NCBI GenBank assembly: GCA_963813715.1 | Contig: CAWFAK010000012.1 | Span: forward strand, 288,001 to 352,000 | Direction: 5' to 3' | From: an uncultured Planctomycetaceae bacterium | Lineage (GTDB): Bacteria; Planctomycetota; Planctomycetia; Planctomycetales; Planctomycetaceae | Length of the DNA stretch: 64,000 nt | The notes under the pieces: generated by a model | The model's database searches: none | The model's input: the letters and a program-made list of their open reading frames with translations, nothing else | Told to the model about the DNA's origin: nothing | Program-made: the position numbers and the translations under genes | Part shown: positions 9,207 to 34,452 of the stretch, piece after piece | Position numbering within the stretch: position 1 is the stretch's first letter | How the letters are laid out: every line of letters starts with the position of its first letter

Positions 9207-10257
9207 ATGGAACGCCGCCACTTTTTGAAAACGGTTACCGTCGGCACGACCCTCTCGGCCGCTGCCGCGAATCTTCGGTCTACCTCGCACAACGCGGAAG
9301 CTCGCGCCGACGAGGCCGCCGTCGACAAGCCCGGCCCGCAAGAAACCGTTCGCGGCGAGATGCGCTACCGCACGCTCGGTCGCACGGGTGAGAAGGTCTC
9401 GCTCATCGGCCTGGGCGGCTTCCACATCGGCGTGCAGCCCGATGAGCAGGAAAGCTTCAAGATCATCCGCACGGCCATCGATCGCGGCATCACGTTCCTC
9501 GACAACTCGTGGGACTACCACATGGGCGGCAGCGAAGAGCGAATGGGCAAGGCGCTCCGCGACGGCTACCGCGACAAAGTCTTCCTCATGACCAAGATCG
9601 ACGGCCGCACTGCCGCCGAAGCCAACAAGCAACTCGACGACTGCCTCACGCCGCCTGCAGACCGATCACATCGACCTCGTGCAGCATCACGAAGTCATCC
9701 GCATGGAAGACCCCGACCGCATCTTCGCCCAAAACGGCGCGAACGACGCCCTGCTCGCCGCGAAGAAGGCGGGAAAGATCCGCTACATCGGCTTCACCGG
9801 CCACAAGGACCCGCTCGTTCATCTGCGGATGCTGCAGACGGCAGAAAAGCACGGCTTCCACTTCGACACCGTGCAGATGCCGATCAACGTGATGGACGCC
9901 CACTTCCGCAGCTTCAGCCGCAACGTGGTGCCCGTCGCCGTCGAACAAGGCATCGGCGTACTCGGCATGAAACCAATGGGCAGCGGTCAGATCCTCATCA
10001 GCCAAACGGTGACGCCCATCGAATGCCTGCACTACGCCATGAGCCTGCCAACGTCGGTGGTGATCACCGGCATCGACAGCCTCAAAATCCTCGACCAGGC
10101 CTTCGAGGCCGTGAAGACTTTCCAACCGCTCAACTCAGAACAAATCGCCGCCCTCTTGAAAAAGACGGCCCAAGCCGCCGAGAACGGCCGCTTCGAGCCG
10201 TTCAAAACAACAAGCGGCTTCGACGCGACGGCGAAGCATCCGGAGTGGCTGGGGTAG
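9207..10257 (+). CDS. Aldo/keto reductase with Tat-like signal (one apparent insertion at ~9650)
   Basis: MERRHFLK; YRTLGRTGEKVSLIGLGG; GITFLDNSWDY; FLMTK; GKIRYIGFTGH; continues in ORF 9679-10257. Confidence 0.9.
10068..10257 (+). repeat. AKR 3'-end repeat, copy 1 (within the intact gene)
   Basis: cggcatcgacagcctcaaaatcctcgac...gcgaagcatccggagtggctggggtag matches 13199-13388 and 16758-16868. Confidence 0.95.
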
Positions 10258-10645
10258 TTACTTCGCGCTGACGCCGTGTGCTTCGCTACATCAGCCGCGG
10301 TGCCCGGGCCGAGACGAACGAGTGACTCCGTCTGTCGCGGCGTGTCGCCCTGCCGACAATTGCCGCGAGAGAATTAATTGTTCGCTTGAGCCGACCTCGA
10401 CTTTTATACTGGGCGACGTCTAGCCCCAGCAGACTGCGGCCAAATTGGGATCGCCAATGATCCGCAGCTATCGCTTTGCCCTCTACGACGAGCCGACCGA
10501 TCTCACGGGCCAGGATCTGATCAGCCTGGCAGGCCGGTCGAGAAAAAAGGTGAAAGCGCTGATCCCAATTCTCATGGACCAGTAGAAATGCAGAGGCGGT
10601 GGTCGTTCACGAAAAAGGTCCGAGCGGCGAACGGAGACATTGCCG

Positions 10646-13157
10646 ATGAAGTGCATGAATTCGCGAATGCGAGGCAGGGGCGATTTCGGCTGCAGCAGAT
10701 TCTCTTTCGCGACGGACGAGTCATCGAGCTGCGATATCGGTGACCCCGGTAGCCGTAATCATCTGCCGTCGGTCCGGCGCCGAACGATTGCAGTTCTCGC
10801 GGGCGCGGCGCTGGTCGTGACCCTGGCTGCTGTCGTTCCGCAAGCGTCGGCCGCCGACAAGGACCGCCAGAAAGTCACGGGCACGGTCGTCAAAGCGGCC
10901 GACGGAGCGCCGGTCGCCGGGGCGACTGTCTACCTGATTACACGAACGCTGATCGTGCCGCGCCCCTCGGTGCAGACCCGCTCGGATGCCGCGGGCCGCT
11001 TCACGTTTGAAGACATCCTACCCGGGACGTATCGCCTCTTCGCCGAATCGGGAAACCAGATTTCCAGTCGCCAGTGGAGCAGTACTGCGCAGTCGCTCAG
11101 GCTCAAAGCGGAGCAGGTTACGGTCAGCAGCAACGAAGTCCCACGGCCCATGACGTTGCGGCTGGTCGAGGGATGTCGTTTCCGCGTGAGCGTAAAACGG
11201 GCGGCCGACAATCGTCCCATCGCAGATGCGAAGATCCGATTTCCCTGGGGAGAGATCGATCGCCATTACGACACCGATTCCAATGGAGTCGTGATGATCG
11301 AAGGCATCCGTTCCGAGGAGCTGGTCTTTCAAGTTCGCGCGGACGGCTACGCGCTCGGCGAAAAACGTCTCGAGCAGACCCAGCCCGGCACGACCACTGA
11401 TCTGAGCTTCTCGCTCGGTCCGGGAGGCGCAGTCGAGGGCACCGTCCACGACGTCGACGGTCGGCCGCTCTTCAACGTCCGAGTCGGTGCCACCGCGAAG
11501 AGGACCCCGGCCGAACTGCACATCGGAAATTCAAAGACCGACGGCAAAGGACGATTTAAGATCGAAAACGTGCCGACCGGCGAAACGATCGAGCTGTCGA
11601 TTTACCAAAAGGACTACTTGCGGAAAGAGCAGCCGGTCACTCTCAAGCCGGACCAAAAAGACCTGACCGTCGACCTCGTCCTCGAGCGCCGGCCCAAGGG
11701 GGGATCGGTTCTGGTGACCGTGACCGGGCCCGATGGCAAGCCGGTTGCCAACGCCAGGCTGGTGAACCCGGGGACAAACAGCTCTTGGAGGCGATACGGC
11801 AAAACCGACGATCGCGGCGAGTGCCAGCTCGACGATGTCTACGACATCTTCGGGCGTCACGAGCTCGGCGTGACGGCGAAGGGTTTTGGGCCGCGCCAAC
11901 TCACGTTTGACCCCGGTCCGCCCGGCAAACCCTCGCGCCTGCAAGTTGCCCTCGAGACGGGTCACCGCATCCGCGGCCGCGTCGCCTTGGGTCCGGGTCG
12001 CTTCGCGGCCGGCGTGCGCGTCTTCTACAACCACGGCGAGCACGGCGAAGTGACCGGGGGCGATGTCCGCACTGGCCCGGACGGCCGATTTGAAATCGAC
12101 TCGCTTCCGAAAGATTGCACGTTCACGGTCTACAGCCCCAAAGGGTATGCCCCGTTCAAGGATCAACCGCTGCCGCTTGATACCGAATCGGAAGTGCTTG
12201 TCACGTTGGAAGCCGCGTCGATCGTGAGGGGGCACGTCGTCGACACCGTCACCCGCAAGCCCGTCGTTCCCTATCGCATTCGCATCATGATCGCTCACGA
12301 TCGCCGTCCGGGCGAGCCCGCGCCCGGCATGCTCACGCAACTCATCCAAGAGGGTCTCATCATCACCAAGAGCGACGGAGAGTTCGAGTTCGGCGACTTC
12401 CCCCGCGGCACGCCGTTACGGCTCATGGTCACCGCCGAAGGCTATCAAGAACCGGGCGGTCGATCGCGTGATTGCTCTCCCGAGCGACGAATTCAAACCG
12501 ATCGAAATTCGGATCCTCAAGCGCGATCCGGCCACGGTCCGCTCGGTCTCGGGCCGGCTGACGAACGCCGACGGAAAACCCGTCGTGGGGGCGCAGGTTC
12601 GTTTGTGGACGGCCACGTCCGCGCCACACGATCTCTCGATGTTCCCCTTCAACTGGACGATGATTACCTGCGGTCAACTCGAACAGAATGAATCGTGCCG
12701 GCAATTCCTGACGACGACGACCGACGACAGCGGCCGCTTTCGATTTTCAGGCGTCCGCATCGCCTTTTACGCCGAGATCGACTACTGGGGCACGGGCATC
12801 GCCCCGGGCCGCGAGCCGATCGGATTCGCGCCTGAGGCCTCGCGGGCCAAGGATTTCGACTTCCGCGCCAAGGCCCCGGCCCGGCTGATCATCGAAGTCG
12901 ATCGTGAAGCCTGGCCGAAGGCCGCCCAAATCACGATCAGCGCCAGCCTGCCGACGCTCGACTATCAAATTCGCAACCTGCGAGCGGGCGAGTCAACGGT
13001 CACCTTCGACGACCTGCCGGCGGGCAATTTTCAGGTCTTCCTGCAAAACGCCGGACACAACATCGGCGGCGGCCGGCTCGCAATCGACACGCTCAGCCGC
13101 AGCCAAGCCGTCTTGCAATCGAGTAAGACGGCGGCGGTTCGATTTGGGAAGCCATAG
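10646..13157 (+). CDS. Secreted carboxypeptidase-regulatory-like (transthyretin/Ig-like) repeat protein, paralogue A (apparent indel ~12450)
   Basis: Hydrophobic signal/anchor ending ASAA; repeated G.V....G.PV..A.V...TD..GRF modules; ORFs 10640-12691 and 12468-13157. Confidence 0.8.
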
Positions 13158-13198
13158 CCGGGTATTTACAACACGCATCGAGGTCCGCATCAGGCGAT

Positions 13199-13388
13199 CG
13201 GCATCGACAGCCTCAAAATCCTCGACCAGGCGTTCGAGGCCGTGAAGACTTTCCAACCCCTCGACTCAGAACAAATCGCCGCTCTCTTGAAAAAGACGGC
13301 CCGAGCCGCCGAGAACGGCCGCTTCGAGCCGTTCAAAACGACGAGCGGCTTCGACGCGACGGCGAAGCATCCGGAGTGGCTGGGGTAA
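13199..13388 (+). repeat. AKR 3'-end repeat, copy 2 (190 bp gene fragment ending in a stop codon)
   Basis: Manual alignment to 10068-10257: 8 substitutions, no indels. Confidence 0.95.
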
Positions 13389-13432
13389 GCGGACGTTTGC
13401 GTGCACTGCGGCCGTAGACGAACAACCGGAGC

Positions 13433-14113
13433 CTATGAGGCCCGTTGCGTGCGTTTTCGGATTGCAATGATTTCCGCCGCGTCGACTTTCCATTGCTGAC
13501 CGACTTTTTTGACGGTGATTGGAAACGGAAAATCGGCGGTAATGAGTTTCACCTGGCCGTCGGCCGCATGGTCCGACACACGTCCGATCCGATTAGAGTT
13601 GGAAATGTGGCTCAGTTGAACGGCAACTTCCGCCGGGTAGGCCCCTTGCCAAAGGATCTCTGCGTCAGGGTGGTCCACGATCAGGGGCTCGATCTGACTG
13701 CGACTCCCGGTAAGCAACGCTGCCAGCAGTTGTCGCATGGTTTGCTCCGGTTCGGCATCCTCCGGCACCACTCGCGGTTGGATTGATTCAAGAATCTCTT
13801 CGTAGGAATGCGTTCTGGCGCTGTTGGAGAATTGCACCAGGAGGCTCAACAATCTGTCAGTCGCTTCGTCGTCGTCCCGAGAACACGACTTGAGCACATA
13901 AGGCCAGATGTAATTCTCCGGGAATCCGAAGTGCCTGGCGACGTAACGGCTGAACGCTTTCCAGCCGTCATTGCTTAACGGGCAGCTCGTCGATGCGTGG
14001 GCAAAGCCGGACAAATACGCGCTGACTTCCAAGAACGACCCGTCGCACACATACATGCTGCGGCGTTTGCAGATGCTTTCGACTAATTCGATGAATTTGT
14101 CTGTTGCATCCAT
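13433..14113 (-). CDS. Hypothetical protein (immunity-protein-like N-terminus)
   Basis: ATG at 14113 (MDATDKFIELVESICKRRSMYV..SFLEVSAYLSGF); visibly more AT-rich than flanking core genes. Confidence 0.65.
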   Translation of the reverse strand: MDATDKFIELVESICKRRSMYVCDGSFLEVSAYLSGFAHASTSCPLSNDGWKAFSRYVARHFGFPENYIWPYVLKSCSRDDDEATDRLLSLLVQFSNSARTHSYEEILESIQPRVVPEDAEPEQTMRQLLAALLTGSRSQIEPLIVDHPDAEILWQGAYPAEVAVQLSHISNSNRIGRVSDHAADGQVKLITADFPFPITVKKVGQQWKVDAAEIIAIRKRTQRAS

Positions 14114-14305
14114 TGCGGACGAGTTCCCGGATGAAAGAGCGTCGCAAAGATAAGGAGCGATTGCCCGTCTTGCCCGGCTACTCAGACACTTGACCCGCTG
14201 CCGATTGTCCGTTTTACGATCGGGAGTACAAGAAAAAAATCCCAAGCCAAACTCCGGGCTGGTTTGCCGCGGGACAGCGCCGCCGTAACCCAGAAAAGGC
14301 GCCCG

Positions 14306-14695
14306 CTAGACGCGCTCCCGCTTGCGACGGCTCTTTTTTCGGGCCTTCCAGGCGGCCCGCGCGTGCGCGCGGTCGAGCCGCGCCAGTCGGTAGCGCCGCA
14401 CGTCGAGATTGCGCTGCTGGCCGGAGGGTGCCTTCACCAGAACGAATGGGAGGCAGACGGACCGCACCCGCAGCGGCACGCCTCCGTTGTCCGGGACGAA
14501 CGGGATGCGGACCGGCTCATCCGGCCGGATTGTGCCGACTCCGCCGCACCAGAAGAAGGACGGCAGTTCGTAGACCACGTGCAGCAATGTTACATAGTCG
14601 CCGGCGCGCACATCCTCCGGGGCCAAAACCTTGGCCGTCGTTAAGTCTTTGGCGCCGGGGCGGCGCCCGGTCTTCGTCTTTCGACAACGTGGCAT
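14306..14695 (-). CDS. Small basic hypothetical protein
   Basis: LAPEDVRAGDYVTLLHVVYELPSFFW...PLRVRSVCLPFVLVK...LDVRRYRLARLD; GC3-rich codons; start uncertain. Confidence 0.65.
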   Translation of the reverse strand: MPRCRKTKTGRRPGAKDLTTAKVLAPEDVRAGDYVTLLHVVYELPSFFWCGGVGTIRPDEPVRIPFVPDNGGVPLRVRSVCLPFVLVKAPSGQQRNLDVRRYRLARLDRAHARAAWKARKKSRRKRERV

Positions 14696-14866
14696 GAGAA
14701 AGAAGACACGCATCCCACGCCGCGGTTCGCGGCGGGGGGCCCGATGATTGCCCAACGGCATGCACACCAGCCGCCCTCGAGCAGTGTTGGGTCCGCGACC
14801 GGATCGAGCGTCCAACTCAATTCCGGAGTGTGTTTTCCGGCAATGTTGAGAATCTGTTGAGAGAAG

Positions 14867-15100
14867 TTATGTGCGGCCACGGCCCACGTCGATCCTGGCG
14901 ATCTTCTGGCAGACCAGCACGAAACGGGAAAAGCGTTCCATGCCCTCGGGGCACACCCACACGTAGGCCTTCCCGCAGTGGGCCCAGTAGCAAGCGTTCT
15001 TCGGCACGTCGCGCCGCGAACAGCCCGCCAGATGTTCGGCGGCTTGCCGCGTGCCCACGTAGTGGTGCGACCACCCTGGAACGCGATGGGATCCTTTATG
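14867..15100 (-). pseudogene. Probable 5'-truncated gene fragment
   Basis: Codon-like GC3 bias over HYVGTRQAAEHLAGC...YWAHCGKAYVWVCPEGMERFSRFVLVCQKIARIDV; no convincing start. Confidence 0.3.
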
Positions 15101-15167
15101 ATTGCGGGCGAATCCCCACGATCGACCCGTCAAGCCAGCGCGGTTGCGCCAGTATACTGACTCCGCC

Positions 15168-15941
15168 ATGATTGAACTCGGGCATGTTTGCGAAATCGTG
15201 CGGTATCCTGTCAAGTCCATGGCGGGCACCCCCACGGAGTCGGCAGTTCTCGGGTGGCACGGACTTGAGGGAGATCGACGATTTGCCTTGCGGCGGCTGG
15301 GAGACGAGAGCGGCTTCCCGTGGCTGACGGCCAGTCGCCTCCCCGATCTCGTTCTCTACCACCCGGTCGGGCTGGACGATCGTGCCGGCGAGCCACTTCC
15401 GACTCATGTCCGCACGCCGGCCGGAGCCCACGTCGAACTGGGAAGCGAGGAGCTCGAGGCTGAACTCGCCGAGCGTTTCGGGGGCGGCTTGGAATTGATG
15501 AAGCTCAAACACGGAATCTTCGACGAGGCGGTACTCTCAGTCATCAGTCTGGCGACGATTGCGGGCATCGGCCGGGAGATCGGACTCGATCTCGATCGGC
15601 GGCGCTTCCGAGCCAACATCTTCGTGAAGACGGAGCGGACCGAGCCGTTTCTGGAGGACGGATGGGTCGGGCGGACGCTGGCCTTTGGCGACAGAGAGCC
15701 GCAGCCGGCCGTGAGCGTCACGCTGTGCGATCAGCGCTGCACGATGGTCAACATCGACCCGGAGACGGGAGCACAAGATCCGCGGGTCATGAAGGCGGTC
15801 GTGCGCCTCAACCAGAACAACGCGGGCGTCTACGCGACGGTGGTGCGAAGCGGGACGATCCGTGTTGGTGATCGAGTGAGCCTTGTGCCCGGCGCACTGG
15901 CCGGTCACAACGACCGACCAGAGGAGTCGATACGTCGATGA
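15168..15941 (+). CDS. MOSC domain protein
   Basis: RYPVKSMAG; GDRRFAL; RRFRANIFV; DQRCTMVNIDPETG; GTIRVGD. Confidence 0.9.
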   Translation: MIELGHVCEIVRYPVKSMAGTPTESAVLGWHGLEGDRRFALRRLGDESGFPWLTASRLPDLVLYHPVGLDDRAGEPLPTHVRTPAGAHVELGSEELEAELAERFGGGLELMKLKHGIFDEAVLSVISLATIAGIGREIGLDLDRRRFRANIFVKTERTEPFLEDGWVGRTLAFGDREPQPAVSVTLCDQRCTMVNIDPETGAQDPRVMKAVVRLNQNNAGVYATVVRSGTIRVGDRVSLVPGALAGHNDRPEESIRR

Positions 15942-16703
15942 ATGTCGCGACGTACAACATTCTGAAAGGCGGCTCGCAGCGGGTCCATTGGGTCCGGTTG
16001 ATCGAGGATTATGCCGTGGACCTCCTGCTCGTCCAGGAGTCGTACTCGCACGACGAGCATCTGCCGCCGCTTGATGTACCCGGATGCCGGAAAACGGTCG
16101 GTCTGGGAGATGGCCGAGCGGAACGGCTGGGGAAGCGCCGTCTACTCTCGCACAGGCTCGGTGAAGCGGGTCCCCGTTCCGAACTTTTCCGGCTGGGTCG
16201 TCGGCGCAGAAATCAGCGGAGCTTCATGGCGAATCGGGTTCGCCGACCCGCTGCTGGCCTTCAGCGTCCACGCTCCGTCAAAGGGAGAAGCCTACTGGAA
16301 GCAAGTGAACAAGCTGCTTGACGAGATCAAGAAACTCGCCGTAGATCGAGAGGTCGTCATCGGCGGCGACTTCAATCTCGCAGTGAGCCACTGCCCCGGA
16401 ACGGAACGACCCACATGCAAACAGGACTTGGCGATCCAGGCGAGGCTGACCGAGGAGTTCGGGCTGCTCAATTGCTGGCAGGCGGCAAATCCCAACCAGT
16501 CGCCGTGCCAGACGCTTCGGTGGACCGGCGACCGAACCATTCCTTACCACTGCGACGGCATTTTCGTGCCGAAGTCTTGGAGGCACCGGCTTCAGTCGTG
16601 CGTGGTCCTAGCAGGAGATGAGTGGAACCGCCTCAGTGACCACAACCCCGTGGTGGCGTGCTTCAGCAGCCGCCTACGTCGGGCCAAGCGTTTCCCTGAA
16701 TGA
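15938..16703 (+). CDS. Endonuclease/exonuclease/phosphatase family protein (apparent indel ~16070)
   Basis: MNVATYNI; DLLLVQE; IGGDFN; HCDGIF; LSDHNPV; start overlaps the MOSC stop. Confidence 0.85.
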
Positions 16704-16757
16704 AGCGAGGAGACCGGGGTCCCGGCGCTTGATGACTCACTCCGCGTCGCCGGTTAT

Positions 16758-16868
16758 GCCGCCCTCCTAAAGAAGCCGGCCCAAGCCGCAGAACGGCCGC
16801 TTCGAGCCGTTCAAGAACGACAAGCGGCTTCGACTCGACGGCGAAGCATCCGGAGTGGCTGGAATGAG
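16758..16868 (+). repeat. AKR 3'-end repeat, copy 3 (~110 bp, degenerate, with indels)
   Basis: gccgccctcctaaagaagccggcccaagccgcagaacggccgcttcgagccgttcaag...gcgaagcatccggagtggctggg aligns to ~10146-10254. Confidence 0.9.
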
Positions 16869-17127
16869 AGCAGCTCATAGAAGCAAACGAACTTCAGGTC
16901 GGAATGCGCACCCGTGCCGAGGCAGCCTACGCCCAGAAGTAGACCGAAACGACGCGATCAGCGTGTTGACATGCGCGCTCTGCCTGCGAGCGAGACTCTT
17001 CCTGCCCCACGCGTCGTTTCAGTTGACCCCCAAGCTTGGTGTGTTTTGGCGATCGCGGGGATAGAATTTGCGAATTGAAGGATGAAACGGCAAGAGTCAA
17101 ATAGTCGATTTCCCACGAGGACAAGCA

Positions 17128-17771
17128 ATGAGCATCGATGACCGTCTCGCACTGCTGGAAAAGAAGTTACGATTCACGCGCCTGACGCTGACAGCGCTGC
17201 TTCTTGGGCTCGCCGTGGTGTGCGCGGTTGGGGCGGGCGACCATTCACCGACCTCGTATGTCGCTCGCTGTGCGTCAAAAGCCCGGATGGTAAGACCGTG
17301 GTTGAGCTAAGTGACTCGGGAGAATTGAAGGCCAGCGGGACAATCACGGCAAACGGAGTAGACATCCTGTCCGACATCGCGAGTCAAAAGCAAGCGTTGA
17401 AGAGCCAGCAACAAGCGTTGAAGCGTCAGCAAGATGAGACTGCGAAAATGATCAATGAGGTTAAGGCCTCAGTTGCAGGTGCCACTGTGAAAGTTGGCAC
17501 GTGTGAGTGGGGGTTCGGTTTGGGGACCCAGGCGAACCGCGCGGACGTTGTGCCGCTATCCGGGAAGAGCGAGTTCATTCCGGATCGTCATTGGGGCAAG
17601 AAAGTCATTGGCGTCGTACCGATGGTCTTTGGGTGTACGAATGAGATCGTCAGCTTGAGCTACGTGGGAGCCGAGGTACACGGCGAGAATCAGATCAAGT
17701 TGACTGTTAACCCTATTCCGGGACATAGTGTCCTCATTGCCGTCCGGGCCGTTGTGTTCTATTTCGAGTAG
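17128..17771 (+). CDS. Hypothetical membrane-anchored or secreted coiled-coil protein (apparent indel ~17245)
   Basis: GAGG RBS; N-terminal TM segment in ORF 17128-17310 continues into ORF 17220-17771; 21-bp tandem duplication at 17391-17432. Confidence 0.6.
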
Positions 17772-17785
17772 GATGATGTTGCCCG

Positions 17786-17811
17786 CGCGAGGCCCGCAGT
17801 TGGGCCTCGCG
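17786..17811. terminator. GC-rich hairpin between convergent genes, possible terminator
   Basis: cgcgaggccc-gcagtt-gggcctcgcg, 10-bp stem; no clear U-tract. Confidence 0.4.
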
Positions 17812-17888
17812 GGTGATTCTCTCATAGATGGTCACGGTTGTTCTACTCGCGTGGGGAGCCGGAATCGAACCTCTGGGCGCCCTTCAAG

Positions 17889-19014
17889 TCAGGTTGAGGG
17901 GTCGACATCAATTGTAAGTCGCAGGAGGCGCGATCCTGCCTCCGTTGCTATCGTCTTGTAGCGAACCCTTACGCCTTTGAACATCGGGGCATTGCGATCG
18001 AGGGTTCTCGGTGGTTCTCCGGTTTCGACCGTGGCCTCCATCTCCCAGTCGTCCGCACCCGGAGGGAGATCGATGATCGAAGTGCCGTAAGGCAGCCGGG
18101 ACCGGGCGGTTCTGTAAATGTGCCCCTGTTGCGCTGCGATCTGATCGGGGGGGGCCCCCTTCGCTAGCATGGAATCCCTCGTCGAGCCAAGGATGAGGTC
18201 CATCGAAGGGCCGCGATCAACGGTGAGGCGACTTAGCTGGCCATTCGCCCCACGCGCGGTCAGCGTGTACGCGACGGGGAAGAGGGGCTTCAACTCAAGG
18301 CTCCCGACGAAGCGCACTTTGTTCGCCCGGCCACGCTCGACCAGCTCGATCGGGACAAATTCCCTTTGCTCCTCTCGATATCGATCCACCAAGCTTGGGG
18401 CGGTGATCTCAAAAGTTACCTTGGTTTCGACGGGATTTCTGGGAACCAACGGTCCTCGCCCGTCGATCCGAAGCCCAAGCTCCGCCGCGTCTCTTGCCGT
18501 GAATGATACGCGGTGAGTATCCCCTCGTGCGAAAGATGAGTTCCGTTCCTTCCGTCTCCAGAACGTTCTTGCTCAGAAAGATGCCGGGGATGAGCGGTGG
18601 GACTGCGGCCACGACCTTCAACAATTGATTGGAAACGGCCGGCGGCAGTCGATTGAGGGACTGGCTGAACTCCTCTGTGATGGGGAACATTCTCCCCTGA
18701 ATCTCGGTGCCTGACTCCCTCACCAGCCTTGAAATCTCCTGAATTGTTTGTTTCCTCTGCTCGATGAAATCGAGGACAACCTTTTCCTCGAGGCGACCGC
18801 CTGCCTTCTCGGCCTTTTCGATGAGCTCATGGACGTCCTTCTTGGCTTGGGCGAGCAGCTTCTGAAGATCGCCGTTGTCGCCCGCAGTTTGTCTGATTTG
18901 GTCGCTGAATTTGTCAATCGCGGCGGCGGTCTCGCGTAGCCCTTTGACGTCGATATCACAACCTGTAAGGCCAAGAGCCATGCAGGCCAAGAGCCAACGG
19001 AATTTAGGCAGCAT
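17889..19014 (-). CDS. Hypothetical lipoprotein (apparent indel ~18500)
   Basis: AAAGGAG RBS; MLPKFRWLLACMALGLTGC lipobox; helical N-half (ORF 18409-19074) and beta-rich C-half (ORF 17889-18449). Confidence 0.6.
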
Positions 19015-19199
19015 ACGATGCTCCTTTCGGGTCTCCCAAACGTGATATGCCCAATTCGACGTGCGTCGCTGCATTGCAAGGCCGCCCGCGGTACGGAGCC
19101 CCTAACTTGCGATTATCTTGCGGGATCTCACAAATAGAGGCTAGGCATCGCTCGTCAGTTGACCAAACTCCCCAAAGGCCAACAAGTCCTGCGGGCGGC

Positions 19200-19326
19200 G
19201 GGTGCCACGGGCGGGGCCTCGCCCGCCCGTGCTCTGGGCGTTGGAATCACGCGACGAATGGGTCGATGATTTGGGCCTAACTCCCCGCGTCTATTAAGGC
19301 ACTGGCGGGCCAAAGGAGTGGCACCC
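19200..19326. repeat. Degenerate REP-like inverted doublet
   Basis: gggtgccacgggcggggcctcgcccgcccgtgc ... gcactggcgggccaaaggagtggcaccc; terminal 9 bp are a perfect inverted repeat. Confidence 0.5.
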
Positions 19327-19355
19327 AGCCGAAGGAACCGGGTGAGTTCGAGCTT

Positions 19356-19844
19356 ATGTCTCTCCCGTCGATCCGTCAGCGGGTGCTCGCCGACTTCGCG
19401 TTGTACGCACTTCGCTTCAAACTCATCGAAGCGGCGAAAGTCGTGTCGTGGGCGGACGAGCTCATCGCGGATTCGGAGTCTCCACCTCCGTGGATGGTCG
19501 ACCTATCGCTTGTCGACAAGTCGGACCCTCATGCGACTCTAGTGCTCCTTCGCCAAGTCCCAGGCGAGCCCAATCTCGAGGAGTCGCTTGATCTCCTGAA
19601 CGGCCTGGTCTTACGCGAGTGGAGGAACGGCCGTTTAACGATCGGCGAAGTGCGAGGCATTGGATGGGTGTTGTACATGGACAACGTCGAGCGGCCCGAT
19701 TCCAGCAAATGGGGCGTCGTTGTCGAGTGCAAGGGCGAGGAAATGGACAACGGATACCTCTCGGAGGCGCAATTGCGCGACGTCATCGACAACCAACTCG
19801 CCCGTTTTGAGCCGGAACTTCGCAGGCTTCCTGACTGGGCATAA
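19356..19844 (+). CDS. Hypothetical acidic protein (immunity-protein-like)
   Basis: 162-aa ORF; KLIEAAKVVSWADELIADSESPPPWMVDLSL. Confidence 0.65.
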   Translation: MSLPSIRQRVLADFALYALRFKLIEAAKVVSWADELIADSESPPPWMVDLSLVDKSDPHATLVLLRQVPGEPNLEESLDLLNGLVLREWRNGRLTIGEVRGIGWVLYMDNVERPDSSKWGVVVECKGEEMDNGYLSEAQLRDVIDNQLARFEPELRRLPDWA

Positions 19845-20071
19845 CCAAGCGTGGCCGCGGCTAGTGCCACTCCCTGCCTTTGGCCAAATGCGACGACAAA
19901 TTTCCCAACTTGTTTCTGAGCGCGTAGAAACTCGATCTTGGCGATTTGCGTTTTGGGCTTTACGTTCGAAATCAGGGGCCGCCCTCACTCCTGGCCAAGC
20001 GGTCGGGGTGCGCGCCGGCGTGTCCCAGGTCAAATATCTGCGAACTGATGGGCAGCAATCGCGTTGGCTGT

Positions 20072-20680
20072 GGGACGGGACACTTTGTTTCAACGGAAAA
20101 GCCCGGAGAACCTCTCGCGAGGACACCGAAGCACCCGACAGCTGATCCGCCGCGGCGGATCGGCTCGCCTGGGGTCCAAGATCAGAAGCTCGCAATCTCG
20201 ACTTTGGACTTTGGACGGGCGGGACTTTGGACCAACTACGGGACGGGACTCGTTGTTTCACCGAGAAAAGCTCGAAGAATGCGGGGGTGGAAAGAGGTTG
20301 GCCGGCGGGTCGGGACACTTTGTTTCAGCTGATTCGTTTAAGTCGGGGAAGTTGACCCAGCGAAGTAGCTAAGGCCCACCGCGGGACGGGACACGTTGCT
20401 TTACCGAGAAAAGCCCGGAGGAATCGCCCTCACCCGACTCGACTGAGCTCGTCGCAGGTCGGCTCTCTCCCATCCGAAACGGACGGGCGAAGGGGGAGCG
20501 TGGGACGGGACACGTGAGCGATCGGCGACAGGCGATGATTGGACAGCCGTTGGCCGGTGGGGAACAGGATCCCCGGCGGGAATGAAATTGGATCCCCGCC
20601 GGTGGTGGGGATCCGTTTTCACTAAGGGAGAAAGAAGATCCCCGGCAAGGTCAGACAAGGAGTTGGCCGGGACCGGACAC
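20072..20680 (+). repeat. Cluster of six degenerate direct repeats, core GGGACGGGACAC, long form ...TTGTTTCACCGAGAAAAGCCCGGAGAA
   Basis: Copies start at ~20072, 20240, 20307, 20383, 20502 and 20669. Confidence 0.75.
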
Positions 20681-20711
20681 GAGACAAATATTGGCAATTC
20701 TCAGTTCTTAG

Positions 20712-20795
20712 TGGGTGGCACTGGCGGCTTGTCCGCCAGTGTGGCTTTCGCATTCAGAAGAAAACCACTGGCGGACGAGCCGCCAGTGCCACCCA
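20712..20795. repeat. REP-like doublet: 30-bp inverted repeat whose arms are themselves hairpins
   Basis: tgggtggcactggcggcttgtccgccagtg (20712-20741) / cactggcggacgagccgccagtgccaccca (20766-20795), 1 mismatch. Confidence 0.85.
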
Positions 20796-20906
20796 ATCGC
20801 GAGGTAACGGCAGAAAATAGCAGCAGGTTGACGACGGTCGCTCTTGGTAAACTGGTGTCGCCGCGTCGAGGCCAGTCAGGAGCTGTTCCGAGTCAGGGAG
20901 CTGCCG

Positions 20907-23393
20907 ATGATCCGCGCTTGTCGTCTCGTTGCTCGCGGGAATCTGGAAAACGGAACCCGGTGCCGCCGCTGGGCGCGACACGTCGACGTGGTCGCGCTCC
21001 TCGTCGCTGTCGCGCTCGTTTTCGCGCCGACAGTGGATGCTGGGCCGCCCGCGTCGTCGGGCCGGTCGAAGTCGCGGGCGTCGACGTCTGCCGAGAAGGG
21101 GCAGATGCTTCGCGGCACGGTCGTCAAAGCGGCCGATGGGTCGCCGGTGGCCGAGGCGACGGTTTACCTGGCGACCGGACGGACGTTCAATCGGGCGAAA
21201 GAGGCGCGGACGGACGCCGCCGGGCGGTTCGAGCTCGGGCCGGTCGATGCCGGGAAATATTCGCTCTTTGCCCAGGCCGGCAACTTGATCTCGCATCTGC
21301 AGCGGCTTGAGTCCGAGCCGGTCACCGTTAAGGCCGGGGAAGCGCCGCCGCCAGTCGCCTTGCGGCTGGCCGAGGGATGCCGGTTCCGGATCACGGTGAA
21401 GCGGGCGTCCGACGGTCGGCCCATCGCCGGGGCGAAAATCGATTTCCGTTGGCCCGACATCAAACGGCAATATCCAGACCGATGCCAACGGAGTCGGCGC
21501 TGCTCGAGGGCGTGCGGCCGACCGAGCAGGTGTTTCACGTCCGGGCCGAGGGTTTCGCGCTCGACGAGAAAACGGTCGCGGCCGCTCAGCCCGGCAAGAC
21601 GAGCGAGCTGACGTTCGTGCTCGGACCAGGCGGGCGGATTGACGGCACGATGCACGACACCGAAGGGCGCCCCCTCTTTGGCATCGGCATCAGCGCGACG
21701 GTCAAGCGGTCGCCCGCCCCTCTCCGTCTGGATTACGTGAAGACCGATGGCAAAGGACGCTTCACATTCGAGAATGTGCCCATCGGCGAGACGGTCGACC
21801 TTTTCTGCTCGCAGAAGAACTTTCTGCGGAAAGAGCAGACGGTCGTGCTCGGTGCCGGCCAGAAGGTGTTGGCCGTCGACGTCGTACTCCAGCCTCGACC
21901 CAAAGGGGGCCTCGGTTTTGGTCACGGTCGTCGGGCCCGATGGCAAGCCGGTGCCGAACGCGCGGCTCGTCAATCCGGGTGACAGTAGCGCGTTCAGGCA
22001 TTACGGCCGCACGGACGACAACGGGCAATGCCAGCTCGACGATGTCTACGACATTTTCGGCCGCCACGAATTGGCTGTCACGGCGAAGGGTTTTGCGCCG
22101 CAGCAGCTCTCGTTCGATCCGGGCCCGCCCGGCAAGCCGTCACAATTAAAAGTGACGCTCGAGCCCGGACATCGCATTCGCGGACGCGTCGTGCTGGGCC
22201 CGAATCGCTACGGGGCCGGCTTGCGCGTCTTCTACGCGCGGGGCGAGCACGGCGAACTGATCGGCGGCGACGTCACGACTGATGCCGACGGGCGATTTGC
22301 CATCGACTCCTTGCCGAAAGCCTGCACGTTTACGGTCTATAGTCCGCCCGGTTACGCCCCCTTCCACGAGCAGGCGCTTCCCCTCGATGGCCCGGACGAA
22401 GTGCTGGTGCGGCTGGATGCGGCGGCCCTCGTGCGGGGACGCGTGATCGACGCGCTGAGCCGACAGCCGGCCGTGCCCTATCGCATTCGAATCATGATTT
22501 CGCGCGATCGCCGTCCGGGCGAGCCGGCTCCGGGGATGTGGAGTTCGCTGGTCGAAGAAGGACGGGTCATCACCAAGAGCGACGGAGAGTTCGAATTCGG
22601 CGACTTGCCCCGCGGCACGCCGTTACGACTGATGGTGGCGGCCGACGGCTACCAGGCGAATGCCGTCGATCGCGTCGTCGCGCTGCCGCGAGGCGAGTTC
22701 AAACCGATCGAGATTCGGCTGCTCAAGCTCGATCCGGGAGCGCTCTGCGCTTTTGCCGGGCGACTGGTGGATGCCGAAGGAAAGCCCGTTGCCGGGGCGT
22801 CGGTGCGGTTGTGGACGGCGACGAGCACTCCGGACAACCCGTCACAATTTCCGTTCAACTGGTCGATGATCAAGTCGGGCCAGCTCGAGCAGAACGATTT
22901 ATGCCGGCAGTTTCTGGCGACGACGACCGACGCGGACGGCCATTTCCATTTCGCGGGCGTCCGCGTGGCCTTCTACGCGGAGGTCGGCTACTGGGGCAAA
23001 GGCATCGCCGCCGATCGCCAGCCGGTTCATTTCGCCCCTGACGCGTCACAGCCGATGGAATTGCGTCTGCAAGCCCGCGCGGCGGCCCGGGTGATCGTCG
23101 AGGTCGATCGCGGCGTCTGGCCGAAGGCCGGCCAGGTTCAGCTCAGTGGCGACCAGGGCACTTCCGATTGGCAACTGAGCACGCTCCGCCCGGGTGAATC
23201 GAAGGTCACTTTCGAGGACCTGCCGCCCGGCACCTTTCGGTTGATTCTCGAGGGCCCGTTTCGCAACTTGGGCGGTGGCCGCCTCACCAGCGACGCCCTC
23301 AGCCACGCCACCGCCACGGTGAAAGCGGGCGAAACCGTGACCGTGCGATTCGAGAAAGACGCCGCGCGGCTTCTTCGGCTCGCGCCAGAATGA
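20907..23393 (+). CDS. Secreted carboxypeptidase-regulatory-like repeat protein, paralogue B (apparent indels ~21475, ~21905)
   Basis: ORFs 20844-21611, 21377-21982 and 21747-23393 are colinear with paralogue A (shared CQLDDVYDIFGRHEL, ITKSDGEFEFGD, FPFNW). Confidence 0.8.
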
Positions 23394-23419: not shown

Positions 23420-25747
23420 TCAGTGCGCCCCGCCGAGCTGTTCCAAAAAGTACGTGGCGATCCGCGTGTATAGCTCGCGAACCTCGATCGGTTGGCTGAC
23501 CATGTGGGTCTGGCCGGCTAGCGGCAGGAACTCGAAGTCGCGGCCCGAGCGGAACAGCGCGTCGGCCAGTCGGATGCTGTGGAGGAAGTAGACGTTGTCG
23601 TCGGCCGTGCCATGAATCAGCAAGAGCGGCCTGCGGAGCTCGTGGGCGACTTCCAGCACGGAGCTGACTTTGTAGGGGAGTGAATTGGTCGTCGGCACGC
23701 CGAGGTAACGCTCGGTGTAGTGCGTGTCGTAGTCGAGCCAGTCGGTGACGGGAGCGCCGGCCACGCCCGCGTGATAGACGTCGGGCCGCCGCGTCACGGC
23801 GCTTGCCGTGAAATAGCCGCCGAAGGACCAGCCGAAAACGCCGACCTTCGAGAGATCGAGCTCCGGATATTTGGCGCCGAGCGCCTGCAGTCCGCTCACC
23901 TGGTCGGCTAGCGGCACTTCGATGAGATTGTTTTTGATCGCCCGTTCCCAGGCGCGGCCGCGGGCAGGCGTGCCGCGACCGTCGAGCGAGACGACGATGA
24001 AACCCTGCTCGGCAAACCAGCCGTCGAGCAAGTAACGCGAACGCGCCGTGGTGACCATTTGCGAGTGCGGCCCGGCATAGACGCTGACAAAGACGGGATA
24101 ACGCTTGCCCACCTGGAAATCGTGCGGGCGAATGACGGCCGCGTGGAAGCTCGGGTTCGTGCCGACCGTCGTCAGCTCGACCGTCGGGAGCAAACCGGGC
24201 GTGCGGGCCAGGCTCTTGAGCTCGCCGGCCACACTGCCGTCGCGGCGATAGACGACTTGCTTCGAGTTGGACGTCAGCGACTGGGAGCCGCGGACGCTGA
24301 CTCCGCTCTCTTCCGCGACAATGGCGCTGTGCTCGCCCGGTTCGTGCGTCAGTTGCTCGGCCGCGGGGATGGCGTCGCCCGGTTGGTCCAGGGGGACGCG
24401 ATAGACGTGCGTCTGCGTCGGATCTTCGCCGCCGGCCACCCAGGCCGTGCCCGTCGATTCGTCGACGCCGATCAGGTGCCGAAGGTTGAGTTCGGGCGCG
24501 GTGAGGATGCGAGCCAGGCTGCCGTCGCGATGGTGCGATTCCAATTGCCAGGTGCCGCGACGCTCGGTCGCCCAGAGGAACGATTGGCCGTCGCGTCGCC
24601 ACTTCGGCAGATGGCCGTTGAGGTTGATCCAGGCCTCGTCAGTTTCGCGGAGCAGCTCCTTCGTTTGGCCGTTGGCCGGATCGATTTCGTAGAGAATCTC
24701 CAGCGTCTGCTCACGGTTCTGCACCAGGATCACGAGCGGAGCGTTCTTCTCCCAGATGACGCGGGCGAGATACGGCAGCTTGACGTTGTCCCAGGCGACC
24801 CACGTCGTTTGGCCACCCGCAACGGGAATCACGCCCACGCGGACGATGGCGTTGTTCTTGCCGGGCCGCGGATAGCGGAACGTTTGAGCCGGCCGCTCCG
24901 GGTGAGCCGGATCGGGGATCGACAGCTCTTCGACGGACGCGGTGTTCGTCTCCTGGTAGACGAGCTGCTGGCTGTCGGGCGACCACCAGTAGCCGTGCAT
25001 GCGATCCATTTCTTCCTGCGCGACGAACTCTGCCAGTCCGTGCGACAGCGTGGCGGTGGCTCCGGTGGTCAGCCGTCGCTCGCTGCCGGTGGCGACATCG
25101 GTGACGTAAAGGTCGCCGTCGCGGACGCAGGCGATGAGCTTGCCGTCCGGCGAGAACTGGGCGTCGATCGGAGAGCCGGCCGTGCTCGTCAGCTTGTGGA
25201 TCGCACCCGTCGATCGCTCGAGCACGTAGAGTTTTTCGGAGAGCGGCACGAGCACGCGGCTGCCGTCATCGGAGAGGTCGAACGTGGCGATCCCGCCGGC
25301 CGACAGTCGCATCCGTTCCCGCCGCGCCTTCTCGGCGGCCGAGAGCGTCTCCTTGGCGCCGCCGAGCAGTTGGGCGGCCGTCGCCAGCACCCGCTCGTTG
25401 CCGGTGGCGACGTCGAATTCGTAGAGGTTCCGCTGGAAACTGCCCGCGGCCGCACGGAGGAACAAGACGGCATCGCCCGCACGTGTGATGTGGGCGCCGG
25501 TCGGAAGCCCGTTGGAAAATCGCCGCGTCGCCGCGTATTGCTCGAGGAACTCGGGCTGCTTGAGCGCCGCACGGAGCCCCTTGGCCGACGATGTGGCGGC
25601 CACACCGGGGCTGGCCAGGGCGGTGCGCTCGACGACCGACGATCCCGCCGATTGGGCCCGCACGACGCCGGCCGGGCCGCAAGCGCAAGCGAAGAGCGCG
25701 ACCGTCGCGACGAACAGGCGGGGCGAAACGATCCGAGACGCGTGCAT
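23420..25747 (-). CDS. Dipeptidyl peptidase IV-like S9 peptidase
   Basis: Signal peptide; EFVAQEEM; GYWWSPD; YPRPG; nucleophile motif GWSFGG; HGTADDNV. Confidence 0.93.
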   Translation of the reverse strand: MHASRIVSPRLFVATVALFACACGPAGVVRAQSAGSSVVERTALASPGVAATSSAKGLRAALKQPEFLEQYAATRRFSNGLPTGAHITRAGDAVLFLRAAAGSFQRNLYEFDVATGNERVLATAAQLLGGAKETLSAAEKARRERMRLSAGGIATFDLSDDGSRVLVPLSEKLYVLERSTGAIHKLTSTAGSPIDAQFSPDGKLIACVRDGDLYVTDVATGSERRLTTGATATLSHGLAEFVAQEEMDRMHGYWWSPDSQQLVYQETNTASVEELSIPDPAHPERPAQTFRYPRPGKNNAIVRVGVIPVAGGQTTWVAWDNVKLPYLARVIWEKNAPLVILVQNREQTLEILYEIDPANGQTKELLRETDEAWINLNGHLPKWRRDGQSFLWATERRGTWQLESHHRDGSLARILTAPELNLRHLIGVDESTGTAWVAGGEDPTQTHVYRVPLDQPGDAIPAAEQLTHEPGEHSAIVAEESGVSVRGSQSLTSNSKQVVYRRDGSVAGELKSLARTPGLLPTVELTTVGTNPSFHAAVIRPHDFQVGKRYPVFVSVYAGPHSQMVTTARSRYLLDGWFAEQGFIVVSLDGRGTPARGRAWERAIKNNLIEVPLADQVSGLQALGAKYPELDLSKVGVFGWSFGGYFTASAVTRRPDVYHAGVAGAPVTDWLDYDTHYTERYLGVPTTNSLPYKVSSVLEVAHELRRPLLLIHGTADDNVYFLHSIRLADALFRSGRDFEFLPLAGQTHMVSQPIEVRELYTRIATYFLEQLGGAH

Positions 25748-25768
25748 GGGCAAATCACTTTCGGCGGA

Positions 25769-30544: not shown

Positions 30545-30925
30545 CACTCAGCTCGGAGAGTCGGTTCGTGGGCACTGGTGTGTCTCTTGCGCCGGGCGCG
30601 CCGTCAGACCGAACACACTCCCGGCGGCTCAGCGCCGCTTCGCATGGTCGCCTCAGCGAGTGACCGCGGTGGGGAAGCGATCGCCTGAAAGCGGAGATGG
30701 CGGCTCAGACCTCTGCACGTAAGAGTTGGGGGCTTCGAGCGCGAATTTTCAGAAAAACCGCGCGGTTCGGGAACGGTCCGTGCTTATCCCAAAGAGCTGG
30801 CGCTCCTTCGCCTCAACAACTGCTTGATTGGGTCAAACCGTTCGAGTAGCTTCGGAACCATTCGGCTCGGCGAGCGTCGAAGCGGGTGCGGGAGAGGCGC
30901 GCAACAGGATTCAGGAGGACGTGAC

Positions 30926-32245: not shown

Positions 32246-32312
32246 CCGCGTTTGCTACGAGCGGCGTTGACGAACCAACATTCCGGGAATCTTGCTCAGC
32301 GAGGACTTCGCC

Positions 32313-33342
32313 GTGCAGCCGAACAGAACACACGGGGCGGCATTTCTTGAGCGCCGGCGGTTATTGGGAGCTCTCGGATTGGCGGGGCTGGGGCTGATTT
32401 CCGGAACCGTCGCCGAACAGTCGGCTCCCCGCGCTCGAGCCGACCAAGACAAGAAACGGCGGCCCAAGTACGACGTCAGTCCTCCGCCAGACGACCTGAA
32501 CGACCTCAGCATGGAGGTTGCCGCTCTTCGCACGATGTACCTGCTCAAAGCCTCGCCCGATCAGGCCCCCGAGCTTCCCGACCGCAACCAGTTCAATGCC
32601 ATTGCGCACCTGGCCACAGCGCCGAAACCGACTGCCGAGCCGCCGCGCGATCGGAATGAGGCCAAGGTCAGCAAGAACTATCGGAAGGTGCTGACCGACC
32701 TGCGTGCGGCCTTCATCGTCAACCACGACGCGCGAATCCGCGAGCTCTCCGACCAGCTCGAGGAGCTCACCAAGGACGAGAAACCCGAGCTGGACGACGC
32801 GGTCGAGATTACCGAACCGGCCCGCAACAATACGCATCGGCTGTTGTTGTACTACGACGCCAACCGCACCGTTCCCTACCTCGCGGCTTATGGTAAGGAG
32901 TTTCCGGACCCCTTCTTCCTGATTCTGTCGTCGCTCGGGGCCGTGCCCAAGGGCAAGAAGCCGTCCGAGGACGAGTGGCCCGGAGTGCGGGAATTCGTCA
33001 TCAAAGAGGTCAGCTGGCAGGTGGGCGGCCTCAATCTCAAAAAGCAGCAACAAATCGCCGCGCAGGTGGCCGAATTCCTGGATGGCGCCTACAAGCTGAG
33101 CGAACCCGAACTGAAAAAAGGCGGCGCTGCCAGGGGGACGACTCAAAGGCCCCATCGGCAAGATCGTCAACGTCGCCGACTGCACCGACATTATCCGCAA
33201 CGTGCTACAGCAGGACCTGGCCGAGCTTCTCTCCAATCCGCAGGTGTTGCCGGCCTGGACCGCGCGCCGGGACTATCTGAGCACGATCGGTCATTGGAGC
33301 GACAACAAGAACGAAACTGGACGCGTCTGGTCACCGCAGTAG
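32313..33342 (+). CDS. Hypothetical exported protein (Tat-like; apparent indel ~33130)
   Basis: LERRRLLG signal; helical body; shifted frame continues ...LQQDLAELLSNPQ to a stop at 33342. Confidence 0.6.
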
Positions 33343-33366
33343 CAACGCACAAGTGTGGAGACAACC

Positions 33367-34350: not shown

Positions 34351-34452
34351 GGCTCTCCCAGCGATCGTAACTCGCACGCAGTCCCGTCGGCTGGATCAAG
34401 GGAATGCCCGCATGGCAAAATAGTCGCGGCACCCTAAGATCCCGGAACACTG

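Follow-up and report, generated by a model that had tools for sequence, protein, structure and literature searches.

Repeated integrase-free insertions at the 3' end of an aldo-keto reductase gene in a soil planctomycete: a probable homologous-recombination hotspot

Introduction

In the genome of a soil planctomycete, an uncultured member of the Planctomycetaceae (assembly GCA_963813715.1, contig CAWFAK010000012.1), small gene blocks stand directly behind an aldo-keto reductase (AKR) gene and are punctuated by further copies of that gene's last codons. How do genes come to be added behind a protein-coding gene, and does their addition call for a recombination system of its own? A preliminary description of the window (the whole stretch of 64,000 nucleotides analysed here, contig positions 288,001 to 352,000) had proposed an undescribed, polarised, integron-like array anchored on the tail of a housekeeping gene. 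Here we compare the tract with its relatives, with the rest of its genome and with known systems.

Results

The repeat comparison confirmed that the tract holds three AKR gene ends in direct orientation. One repeat pairs window positions 10068-10256 with 13199-13387 (189 nt, 96.3% identity, E 2e-84; tail 2), and another pairs 10147-10252 with 16758-16862 (107 nt, 91.6% identity, E 2e-35; tail 3); besides the intact gene, the copies starting at 13199 and 16758 are the only close ones in the 7.49-Mb assembly. Tail 2 shows five synonymous and two non-synonymous differences from the intact end, as well as a different stop codon, and is nearest to the AKR gene of its own genome (7 mismatches, against 12-26 for other alleles). 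Tail 3 is degenerate: it has three gapped bases, the alignment stops 5 nt short of the stop codon's end, and its terminus is GAA TGA where GGG TAG is expected. Judging from the genus relatives G003 and G009, its left edge was probably eroded from the junction between the EEP-family gene and an AKR tail that both of them retain. Assembly error is the probable source of the frameshifts at 9647 (in the AKR gene), 12450 and 16074, since contigs from public sequencing runs do not carry the extra base. Contrary to its earlier labelling as a housekeeping gene, AKR is not universal, with any match at all in 17 of 36 family genomes and a close orthologue in nine of 11 other genus genomes.

Table 1. Features of the tract and its right flank (window positions).
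Feature	Position	Strand	Basis or remark
Aldo-keto reductase (AKR) gene, anchor	9207..10257	+	PF00248 in both frames; open orthologue in G002
3' end of the intact AKR gene, template for the tails	10068..10257	+	Repeat comparison
Block 1, 2.94 kb: spacer and repeat-protein gene A	10258..13198		Absent from G002; junction dq -189, ds 2942
Gene A, CarboxypepD_reg repeat protein	10640..13157	+	Pfam; frameshift at about 12450
Displaced AKR tail 2, 189 nt, 96%	13199..13388	+	Repeat comparison; left junction bridged by public contigs
Hypothetical protein, 226 aa	13433..14113	-	Follows intact AKR in G002
Hypothetical gene	14306..14730	-	Sequence comparison with genus genomes
MOSC-domain gene	15168..15941	+	PF03473, PF03476
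EEP-family nuclease/phosphatase gene	15938..16703	+	Pfam; relatives
Displaced AKR tail 3, 107 nt, 92%, frame broken	16758..16862	+	Repeat comparison
Strain-specific hypothetical genes, GC 0.58	16863..19900		No closing tail
Genome-wide dispersed repeat cluster and palindrome	20064..20795		Unrelated to AKR tails
Gene B, paralogue of A (72%)	20907..23393	+	Pfam, repeat comparison
Peptidase S9 / DPP IV gene	23420..25753	-	Pfam; right flank in G002, G003, G006, G007, G009

Pfam agreed with the cargo as first named (a secreted repeat protein, MOSC and EEP, with the S9 peptidase beyond; Table 1), and the product of gene A is probably secreted. The label 'immunity-like' found no backing, the 226-aa protein having no Pfam match and a best Atlas score of 0.81, which is uninformative. 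The neighbouring hypothetical gene at 14306 occurs at 74-84% identity in different contexts in other genus genomes, and the Pfam and frame scans of the blocks revealed no restriction-modification families. A third accessory stretch had been drawn as far as about 23.4 kb. It does include a strain-specific part, which has no match in other genus genomes and almost no coverage in four public runs, but its right part (the repeat array and paralogue B) is common to G002, the stretch has no closing tail, and comparison with relatives extends the variable interval to about 34.4 kb. Genes A and B lie 10.2 kb apart, and the G002 copy of gene B is an A/B mosaic.

Rather than being fixed, the content of the interval differs among six genus genomes (the source genome G000 and G002, G003, G006, G007 and G009), between conserved flanks and without mobility proteins; cargo specific to G002 includes two IS transposases. 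G002 presents a clean empty site for block 1 with a 189-nt overlap, and what follows its intact AKR gene is tail 2 together with the DNA downstream of tail 2. A tail of G003 plus about 140 nt likewise equals what follows the intact AKR gene of G009. These two comparisons bear out the proposal that additions are made beside the intact gene and push the old end outward. The empty site in G002 may alternatively represent a loss of block 1, because gene B of that genome is partly A-like. Both G003 and G009 have AKR tails of their own with reshuffled cargo. One and the same EEP-tail junction is present in these two genomes and eroded in G000, and it leads into three different downstream sequences in the three species. 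In the corresponding interval of G006, where no AKR sequence was found, cargo from the same pool is again reshuffled.

Cargo is closer across species than its flanks: gene A shares 94.4% identity with the gene that follows AKR in G003, and the EEP gene is 94.5-95.3% identical in G003 and G009 (where an AKR tail follows it too), compared with 83-85% for mfd, 77-78% for S9 and 89-90% for AKR. Within AKR, the last 150 nt differ at two sites between G003 and G009, against 53/741 upstream (P 0.001; post hoc, one of ten pairs), and the G009 tail is nearer to the G002/G000 allele than to the AKR gene of G009 itself. Junctions of three types begin near 10068, 10121 and 10131, with erosion visible alongside, and the differing left edges could alternatively stem from erosion of one fixed att site. 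Among the joints listed for four public runs there was no circle or empty-site joint, and the short contigs of these runs cannot show them.

The absence of recombinases and transposases from the tract and its surroundings, and of mobility genes from the blocks themselves, held up. Of the 132 listed frames of at least 48 aa between 10258 and 21000, 125 were scanned and contained neither a match to such a family nor a degraded integrase; six of the remaining seven overlap genes covered by the Pfam scan of the main genes. Profiles PF00589, PF07508 and PF00239 had no match on the 463-kb contig. Across 12 genus genomes, none of the PF00589 matches listed lies within 30 kb of AKR or marks a cognate integrase-bearing element at the AKR site, where the only element is an IS3-like one in G003; the search for serine recombinases covered the source genome. 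Integrases are present elsewhere in that genome, none of these matches falling within other tail loci, and it carries many IS110-family copies and other recombinases. The tRNA genes of the contig are located away from the tract, and the repeat is not a tRNA. Both comEC and dprA are encoded in the genome, a presence that is no proof of competence.

Genome-wide, downstream displaced 3' tails made up 12 of 53 repeat pairs compared with three upstream, and random placement yielded a mean of 3.05 downstream tails and reached 12 in none of 300 placements. Omitting two doubtful pairs leaves 10 downstream against three upstream (P 0.046), and a cruder scan gave 26 downstream against 17 upstream pairs. 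The same scar is found at about ten unrelated genes. Relatives have empty sites for the DUF1501, metH and comEC tail loci; no clean empty site was found in relatives for the cysE-like and kinase loci, and at the aminotransferase locus G002 keeps a 77-nt tail with the cargo absent. The DUF1501 search in five relatives returned mostly paralogues, and the cargo there, a 5'-truncated ParA-like gene with a GC content of 0.52, looks like a mobile-element remnant. In 13 tail pairs pS is 0.163 and pN 0.050, and the synonymous share is 55/109 against 38.5% expected (P 0.008), an excess that is inflated by transition bias and does not separate homologous recombination from integrase islands. The left edges of 16 tails share no motif (P 0.33-0.98); three of the longest tails start near GGCATC, which is not significant (P 0.33).

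A 193-nt repeat beside a broken resolvase (C18) was rejected as a gene tail. A genus-specific excess of tails is unsupported, the crude scan counting 26 pairs downstream over 7.48 Mb here and eight over 1.80 Mb of unrelated bacteria; the five control loci inspected comprised one true tail (L231) and four repeats outside a gene's coding end, with three pairs in L241 lying outside the inspected set. Among distant AKR loci, no downstream direct copy of the AKR end was found at 80 from metagenomes, 30 of them with 3 kb or more of sequence beyond the gene, or at 79 from genomes, 71 of them with as much. With tails at 0/159 distant AKR loci, AKR was rejected as a widespread att site.

Discussion

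The AKR tract is a genuine integrase-free insertion scar whose junction type has been described before. The insertions at the AKR end are most likely the work of ordinary homologous recombination and not of a new integron-like system. We consider it probable that the tract is a homologous-recombination hotspot, a single gene end having repeatedly received insertions with long target duplication. Behind this reading stand the observed repeats, empty sites, polarity, sharing of cargo across species, many anchors and absent recombinase. Incoming DNA from a relative would, in the account we favour, use the AKR end as a homology anchor and an existing tail as a second arm, with no need of an integrase; RecA dependence, the uptake route and the order of events are what we infer.

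In a first step, DNA of a relative carrying an AKR end and other genes would pair through AKR homology, and its free end would be joined inside the resident AKR end; alternatively, a single crossover might bring in the donor DNA in the form of a small circle. AKR would thereby stay whole and be followed by the cargo, and its former final 100-190 nt would be carried downstream along with their old neighbours. Additions would be polar because the AKR gene survives only when an event takes in its stop codon. A tail at its end would then give a block another homology arm matching that target, and an ordinary double crossover, through the AKR body on the left and the tail on the right, could add the block to any AKR-bearing relative, the recipient's downstream DNA being irrelevant. 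The same repeats would permit precise pop-out. As the comparisons among relatives show, deletions erode tails and cargo, and replacements reshuffle the interval. Arms of 100-190 nt at 80-96% identity are expected to recombine inefficiently.

More tentatively, the tails may be working parts as well as scars, a single chance insertion supplying a block with its second arm and turning it into a portable cassette that RecA alone would add gene-proximally, across species. The EEP-tail junction with its three different continuations would be a direct trace of such additions. If this were true, each anchor gene of this kind would serve as a polarised landing pad that perpetuates itself, in effect an 'integron without integrase or att site', and tails acting as second arms could explain part of the hotspots of horizontal gene transfer (HGT) without mobility genes. 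The empty sites and cross-species junctions make the idea testable.

A CIME-like tandem accretion, in which integrase elements bearing a replacement AKR end inserted serially and later had their integrases deleted, is an unlikely alternative. The polarity and the repeats ending at the stop codon resemble the ICE/IME/CIME tandems described in PMC5704250, junction deletions are visible, truncated ParA cargo like that of a mobile element lies at one other locus, and the genome does have integrases. Yet about ten target genes would call for a separate integrase specificity each, all of them since lost, whereas the frames scanned in the tract hold no integrase remnant, the integrase matches listed fall beyond 30 kb of AKR throughout the genus and outside all other tail loci, and distant AKR loci are devoid of tails. 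Improbable in our view is a local tandem duplication over the gene end, with the interior then deleted or replaced and no gene end imported. The proximity of paralogues A and B and the closeness of tail 2 to its own AKR gene would suit it, but A and B are 72% identical where the tail is 96%, gene A and EEP are nearly identical between species, the synonymous share exceeds expectation and the G009 tail resembles a foreign allele.

Still less probable is a dedicated integron-like system in which a recombinase encoded elsewhere would act in trans, recognising gene ends and adding cassettes to them. Blocks that are polar, repeated and integrase-free invite the comparison, as do the many IS110-family copies and other recombinases and the GGCATC coincidence, which falls short of significance; against it, edges are variable, anchors are unrelated, blocks are multi-gene mosaics without attC-like ends, and the cargo pool is shuffled in G006 without AKR. 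We therefore do not retain the integron-like array anchored on AKR: the system is not AKR-specific, because tails lie at about ten unrelated genes, no motif marks their edges and distant AKR loci have none. An artefact of long-read metagenome assembly is highly improbable, and refuted for tail 2, given that indel errors do occur but the copies of the AKR end differ at at least 7 sites, contigs from three of four runs of other soil studies bridge the junction of gene A and tail 2, and junctions are common to G002, G003 and G009.

Integrons share with the tract polarised addition at the proximal site. Their hallmarks are IntI, attI, attC and single-gene cassettes with a common end; the AKR tract has no IntI (no PF00589 on its contig), no attI or attC and no single-gene cassettes, and in repeat and motif comparison its only common boundary is the AKR tail, with no edge motif. 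In homology-facilitated illegitimate recombination, DNA homologous on one side can give rise to insertions through host enzymes; the process is known from one-sided insertions, not from gene-end tails. Pneumococcal alternative repeat pairing likewise shows that partly repeated transforming DNA can yield duplications with host enzymes alone, as described for IS-bounded duplications of 100-900 kb rather than for gene-end tails (PMC3784515). Additive flexible genomic islands of Alteromonas also gain cassettes at one site, have part of the target gene repeated downstream and hold near-identical cassettes in different species, but as presented there they mostly target tRNA or tmRNA genes, and site-directed recombination is the mechanism assigned to them (PMC4898812). 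CIMEs and ICE-IME tandems likewise have blocks that lack an integrase and lie between att-like repeats, with the latest arrival adjoining the target gene end and older ones displaced outward; by that account CIMEs need an element with the cognate integrase and fixed att sites, whereas none was found at AKR, and edges and targets vary (PMC5704250).

Closest of all is insertion with long target duplication, integrase-free and with duplications that span stop codons (Furuta, Abe and Kobayashi 2010, PMC2853133); with this class in print, the system is not undescribed. Common to both are an insert below 20 kb, a direct repeat above 30 bp, no other mobile element and an empty site in a relative, here a 2.94-kb insert, a 189-nt repeat and the G002 site. 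In their cases the repeats often span a start or stop codon and leave the gene intact, mostly in competent species, and the cargo is restriction-modification genes, whose enzymes are suggested to break the DNA. The AKR tract differs in its cargo, which is not of the restriction-modification type, its repeated polar events at one gene end and its cargo-tail junction shared between species; restriction-modification cargo was a search criterion of that study and not a junction type, and we file the tract by junction class. Because this class is already described, what makes the tract worthwhile is the test of mechanism that it offers rather than the locus itself. A literature search, mostly outside subscription journals, found among the hits listed no planctomycete transformation report, and no described arrays of repeated long target duplications at one protein gene, although examples of repetition may be included in Supplementary Figure 7 of PMC2853133. 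HGT hotspots free of mobile elements have been explained by double homologous recombination at flanking genes, 27% of transfer hotspots being without integrase or transposase (Oliveira et al. 2017, PMC5635113). They share with our interval high turnover between conserved flanks and the absence of mobility proteins. As outlined there, that model is one of replacement between two flanks and would by itself give neither duplicated gene ends nor additive growth, whereas the AKR locus shows additive, ordered growth without integrase or transposase.

The AKR gene end and its displaced copies

The 3' end of the aldo-keto reductase (AKR) gene occurs three times in direct orientation, as the preliminary description had stated, once at the intact gene and twice as displaced copies, or tails (see table). 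The window covers positions 288001-352000 of contig C12 in the source genome (G000; 7.49 Mb in 18 contigs), and a search of that whole genome returned no further close copies of this end. Pfam searches confirmed AKR, MOSC, EEP and peptidase S9, as well as both CarboxypepD_reg repeat proteins, A and B, which are 72% alike; the label "immunity-like", earlier attached to one cargo gene, found no support in Pfam or Atlas searches.

The G000 assembly contains single-base indel errors, and extra bases at 9647, 12450 and 16074 are absent from contigs of public soil runs, so intact reading frames are probable for AKR, gene A and the EEP gene. Contigs from three of four runs, drawn from different studies, cross from gene A into tail 2 and reach 30, 30 and 141 bases into the tail; an assembly artefact is therefore very unlikely. 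Record 28 of soil run X4 is a contig of 5.1 kb that is 98% alike over the hypothetical-MOSC-EEP module and extends 2.7 kb leftward with different DNA; this module therefore also occurs in another context.

Features of the AKR tract and of comparable loci (window coordinates unless a contig or locus is named)
Feature	Position	Description	Empty site
AKR gene	9207..10257 (+)		
Block 1, with gene A	10258..13198		G002 (dq -189, ds 2942)
AKR end, copy 2	13199-13387 (= 10068-10256)	189 nt, 96.3%	
Hypothetical-MOSC-EEP module	14306-16690		
AKR end, copy 3	16758-16862 (= 10147 onward)	107 nt, 91.6%	
Clustered dispersed repeats	20064-20795	GGGACGGGACAC core; palindrome with 30-nt arms	
Gene B	20907..23393		
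Further block	30544-33355	2.8 kb, no long flanking repeat	missing from G002
DUF1501 tail			G002 (199-nt overlap)
metH tail			G003, G009, G007 (92-94 nt)
comEC 3' end (L151)	G000:C9:680463-684238	3.5-kb BlaR1/M56 cargo and tail	G007, G009
tRNA gene array	G000:C7:914718-919431	32 genes, dense	
Non-coding direct repeat	G000:C18:89715-99525	193 nt, 94%	
Sole G002 repeat-protein gene	L021:7290-9760	mosaic	
Regulator gene tail, Calothrix	L231:8522-9915	213 nt, 93%	

The interval in related genomes

An AKR orthologue is present in nine of the 11 other genomes of the genus. As AKR adjoins the gene of window position 34452 in four of them (G004, G005, G008 and G011), the interval has grown by ~24 kb in the G000 clade. 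A clean empty site for block 1 is found in G002, the closest relative (~92% identical), where intact AKR is directly followed by the sequence that stands behind tail 2 in G000; the earlier proposal of polarised addition next to the intact gene was thus right. In G003, AKR is followed by A, a further gene X and EEP; then come a tail of 62 nt, a fragment of A and a second tail, of 135 nt. In G009, X and EEP stand between AKR and a tail of 115 nt, and in G007, AKR is followed by 11.5 kb of other cargo with no tail. The AKR contig of G006 is too short for its downstream content to be judged; on another contig, its mfd-S9 interval contains the tract's hypothetical gene, a portion of A, a G007-type gene and X, and has no match to AKR. 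The fragment of A between the two G003 tails (L027) is 205 nt of that gene's 3' end (84%), placed after the full-length gene.

G003 and G009 share an identical EEP-tail junction, which is eroded in G000, and three different sequences follow the tail in the three genomes; in G003 the tail precedes ~140 nt of DNA that in G009 follows intact AKR. Since the X-EEP-tail-spacer block that separates full-length A from its fragment in G003 is a circular permutation of the G009 block, a circle or tandem array offers an alternative history for it.

Between G000 and G003/G009, A (94.4%) and EEP (94.5-95.3%) are more alike than mfd (83-85%), S9 (77-78%) and AKR (89-90%), which indicates that cargo has passed from species to species at this one site. 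The AKR genes of G003 and G009 differ at 2 sites in the last 150 nt against 53/741 upstream, a post hoc hint from 1 of 10 pairs. The ends of the G002 repeat-protein gene (its gene B) are like B, and its central 1.4 kb is 80-89% identical to gene A; given this A-like middle, the empty site in G002 could reflect loss by pop-out instead of the ancestral state.

Displaced tails at unrelated genes

G000 has 53 low-copy direct repeat pairs of 60-400 nt with at least 78% identity and a spacing of 0.3-15 kb; in 12 of them the copy lay downstream of a gene end and in 3 upstream. Random placement gave ~3 in each direction and never reached 12 in 300 trials (maximum 10); with AKR counted once and one dispersed-repeat pair removed, the counts were 10 and 3 (P 0.046). 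Anchor genes include those for a class III aminotransferase, a Ser/Thr kinase, DUF1501, metH, a hexapeptide (cysE-like) transferase, DUF1080, comEC and MoxR, and their cargo spans 0.3-4.7 kb. The comEC end is a hotspot in its own right, with different inserts in G002 and G003. Tails of their own stand at other genes in G002 (122 nt) and G007 (106 nt). Of 33 clean G002 indels, three had a repeat of at least 100 nt, all at gene ends, and the next largest overlap was 23 nt, in a sample (1.45 Mb, ~19% of the genome) biased upward by being partly picked around known candidates. No 5-7-mer was significantly common at the left edges of tails.

Across 13 tail pairs, including the DUF1501 case added by hand from outside the 53, pS was 0.163 and pN 0.050; the synonymous share (55/109) was above the 38.5% that neutral decay after a local duplication would predict (P 0.008), a test weakened by transition bias. 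A cruder scan gave 26 downstream and 17 upstream pairs in G000, and 8 and 2 in 1.80 Mb of unrelated bacteria (one true tail among five loci inspected); with these controls it counts against our own reading, and the counts do not show the genus to be special. That true tail, in a Calothrix record, is the same type of scar in a cyanobacterium: a NarL-type regulator gene and its displaced end bracket one SnoaL-like gene. An AKR-specific system was rejected, given the tails at unrelated genes; nor is AKR a general target, as none of 159 distant AKR loci has a tail.

Recombinases and other repeats

The claim that no recombinase lies in or beside the tract held in both searches. No recombinase or transposase family was found among 125 of 132 listed frames of 10258-21000, a scan of frames that extend outside gene A and lie before 21000. 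A six-frame search of the whole G000 genome gave 11 PF00589, 3 PF07508 and 8 PF00239 matches, none of them on the AKR contig (C12) and none inside tail-locus cargo; of the tyrosine recombinase matches listed across the genus, none comes within 30 kb of AKR. The G003 interval contains an IS3-like element. Counting against our reading, the DUF1501 cargo resembles a truncated mobile-element fragment, and IS transposases occur within G002-specific cargo.

The dispersed repeats clustered before gene B occur genome-wide, and elsewhere a 1.24-kb element of the IS110 family (PF01548, PF02371), which is abundant, appears to adjoin them; this element could supply a recombinase that acts in trans on modules bounded by such repeats. 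The tRNA gene array belongs to a 41-kb stretch that has tRNA-Arg repeats on both sides, and an integrase fragment lies at 939094 of the same contig. The C18 repeat has a broken resolvase-family gene just inside, and the contig end coincides with the end of its second copy.

Homology-anchored addition as the proposed mechanism

A model of the tract has five things to account for: the repeats finish at stop codons, the anchor genes are numerous and unrelated, the tail edges vary, the cargo is small and lacks an integrase, and a single cargo-tail junction stands before three different downstream sequences. Homology-anchored addition, the explanation that we favour, accommodates each of them. The resident gene would pair with a donor gene end and the far end of the donor would join within the resident gene end, or a small circle would enter by a single crossover, with selection retaining those insertions that preserve an intact gene. 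Once it ends in a tail, a block could later enter other genomes by double crossover through gene body and tail, always landing next to the gene, and might pop out again. That tails act as portable second homology arms is a tentative, rather doubtful extension. Both comEC and dprA are present in G000; DNA uptake and a dependence on RecA are inferred parts of the model. Islands whose integrases have decayed would explain the geometry equally well, but would require about ten specificities, every one lost without remnant, and we consider this origin quite unlikely.

Relation to known systems

With unrelated anchors, no shared edge motif and a junction class already described, the tract is not the dedicated integron-like system first proposed; it is a real feature, a recurring instance of that class at a recombination hotspot. 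Within the main texts of a limited selection of papers, we found no account of repeated polar tail arrays at one protein gene. Judged on excerpts of the papers, part of the picture is covered by CIME accretion (PMC5704250), additive islands (PMC4898812), MGE-free hotspots (PMC5635113) and alternative pairing in transformation (PMC3784515). Furuta et al. (PMC2853133) define insertion with long target duplication by an insert of <20 kb, a repeat of >30 bp and no other mobile element; according to them a start or stop codon often lies within the repeats, and most cases come from competent species. Block 1 has a junction of this kind but differs in carrying non-RM cargo.
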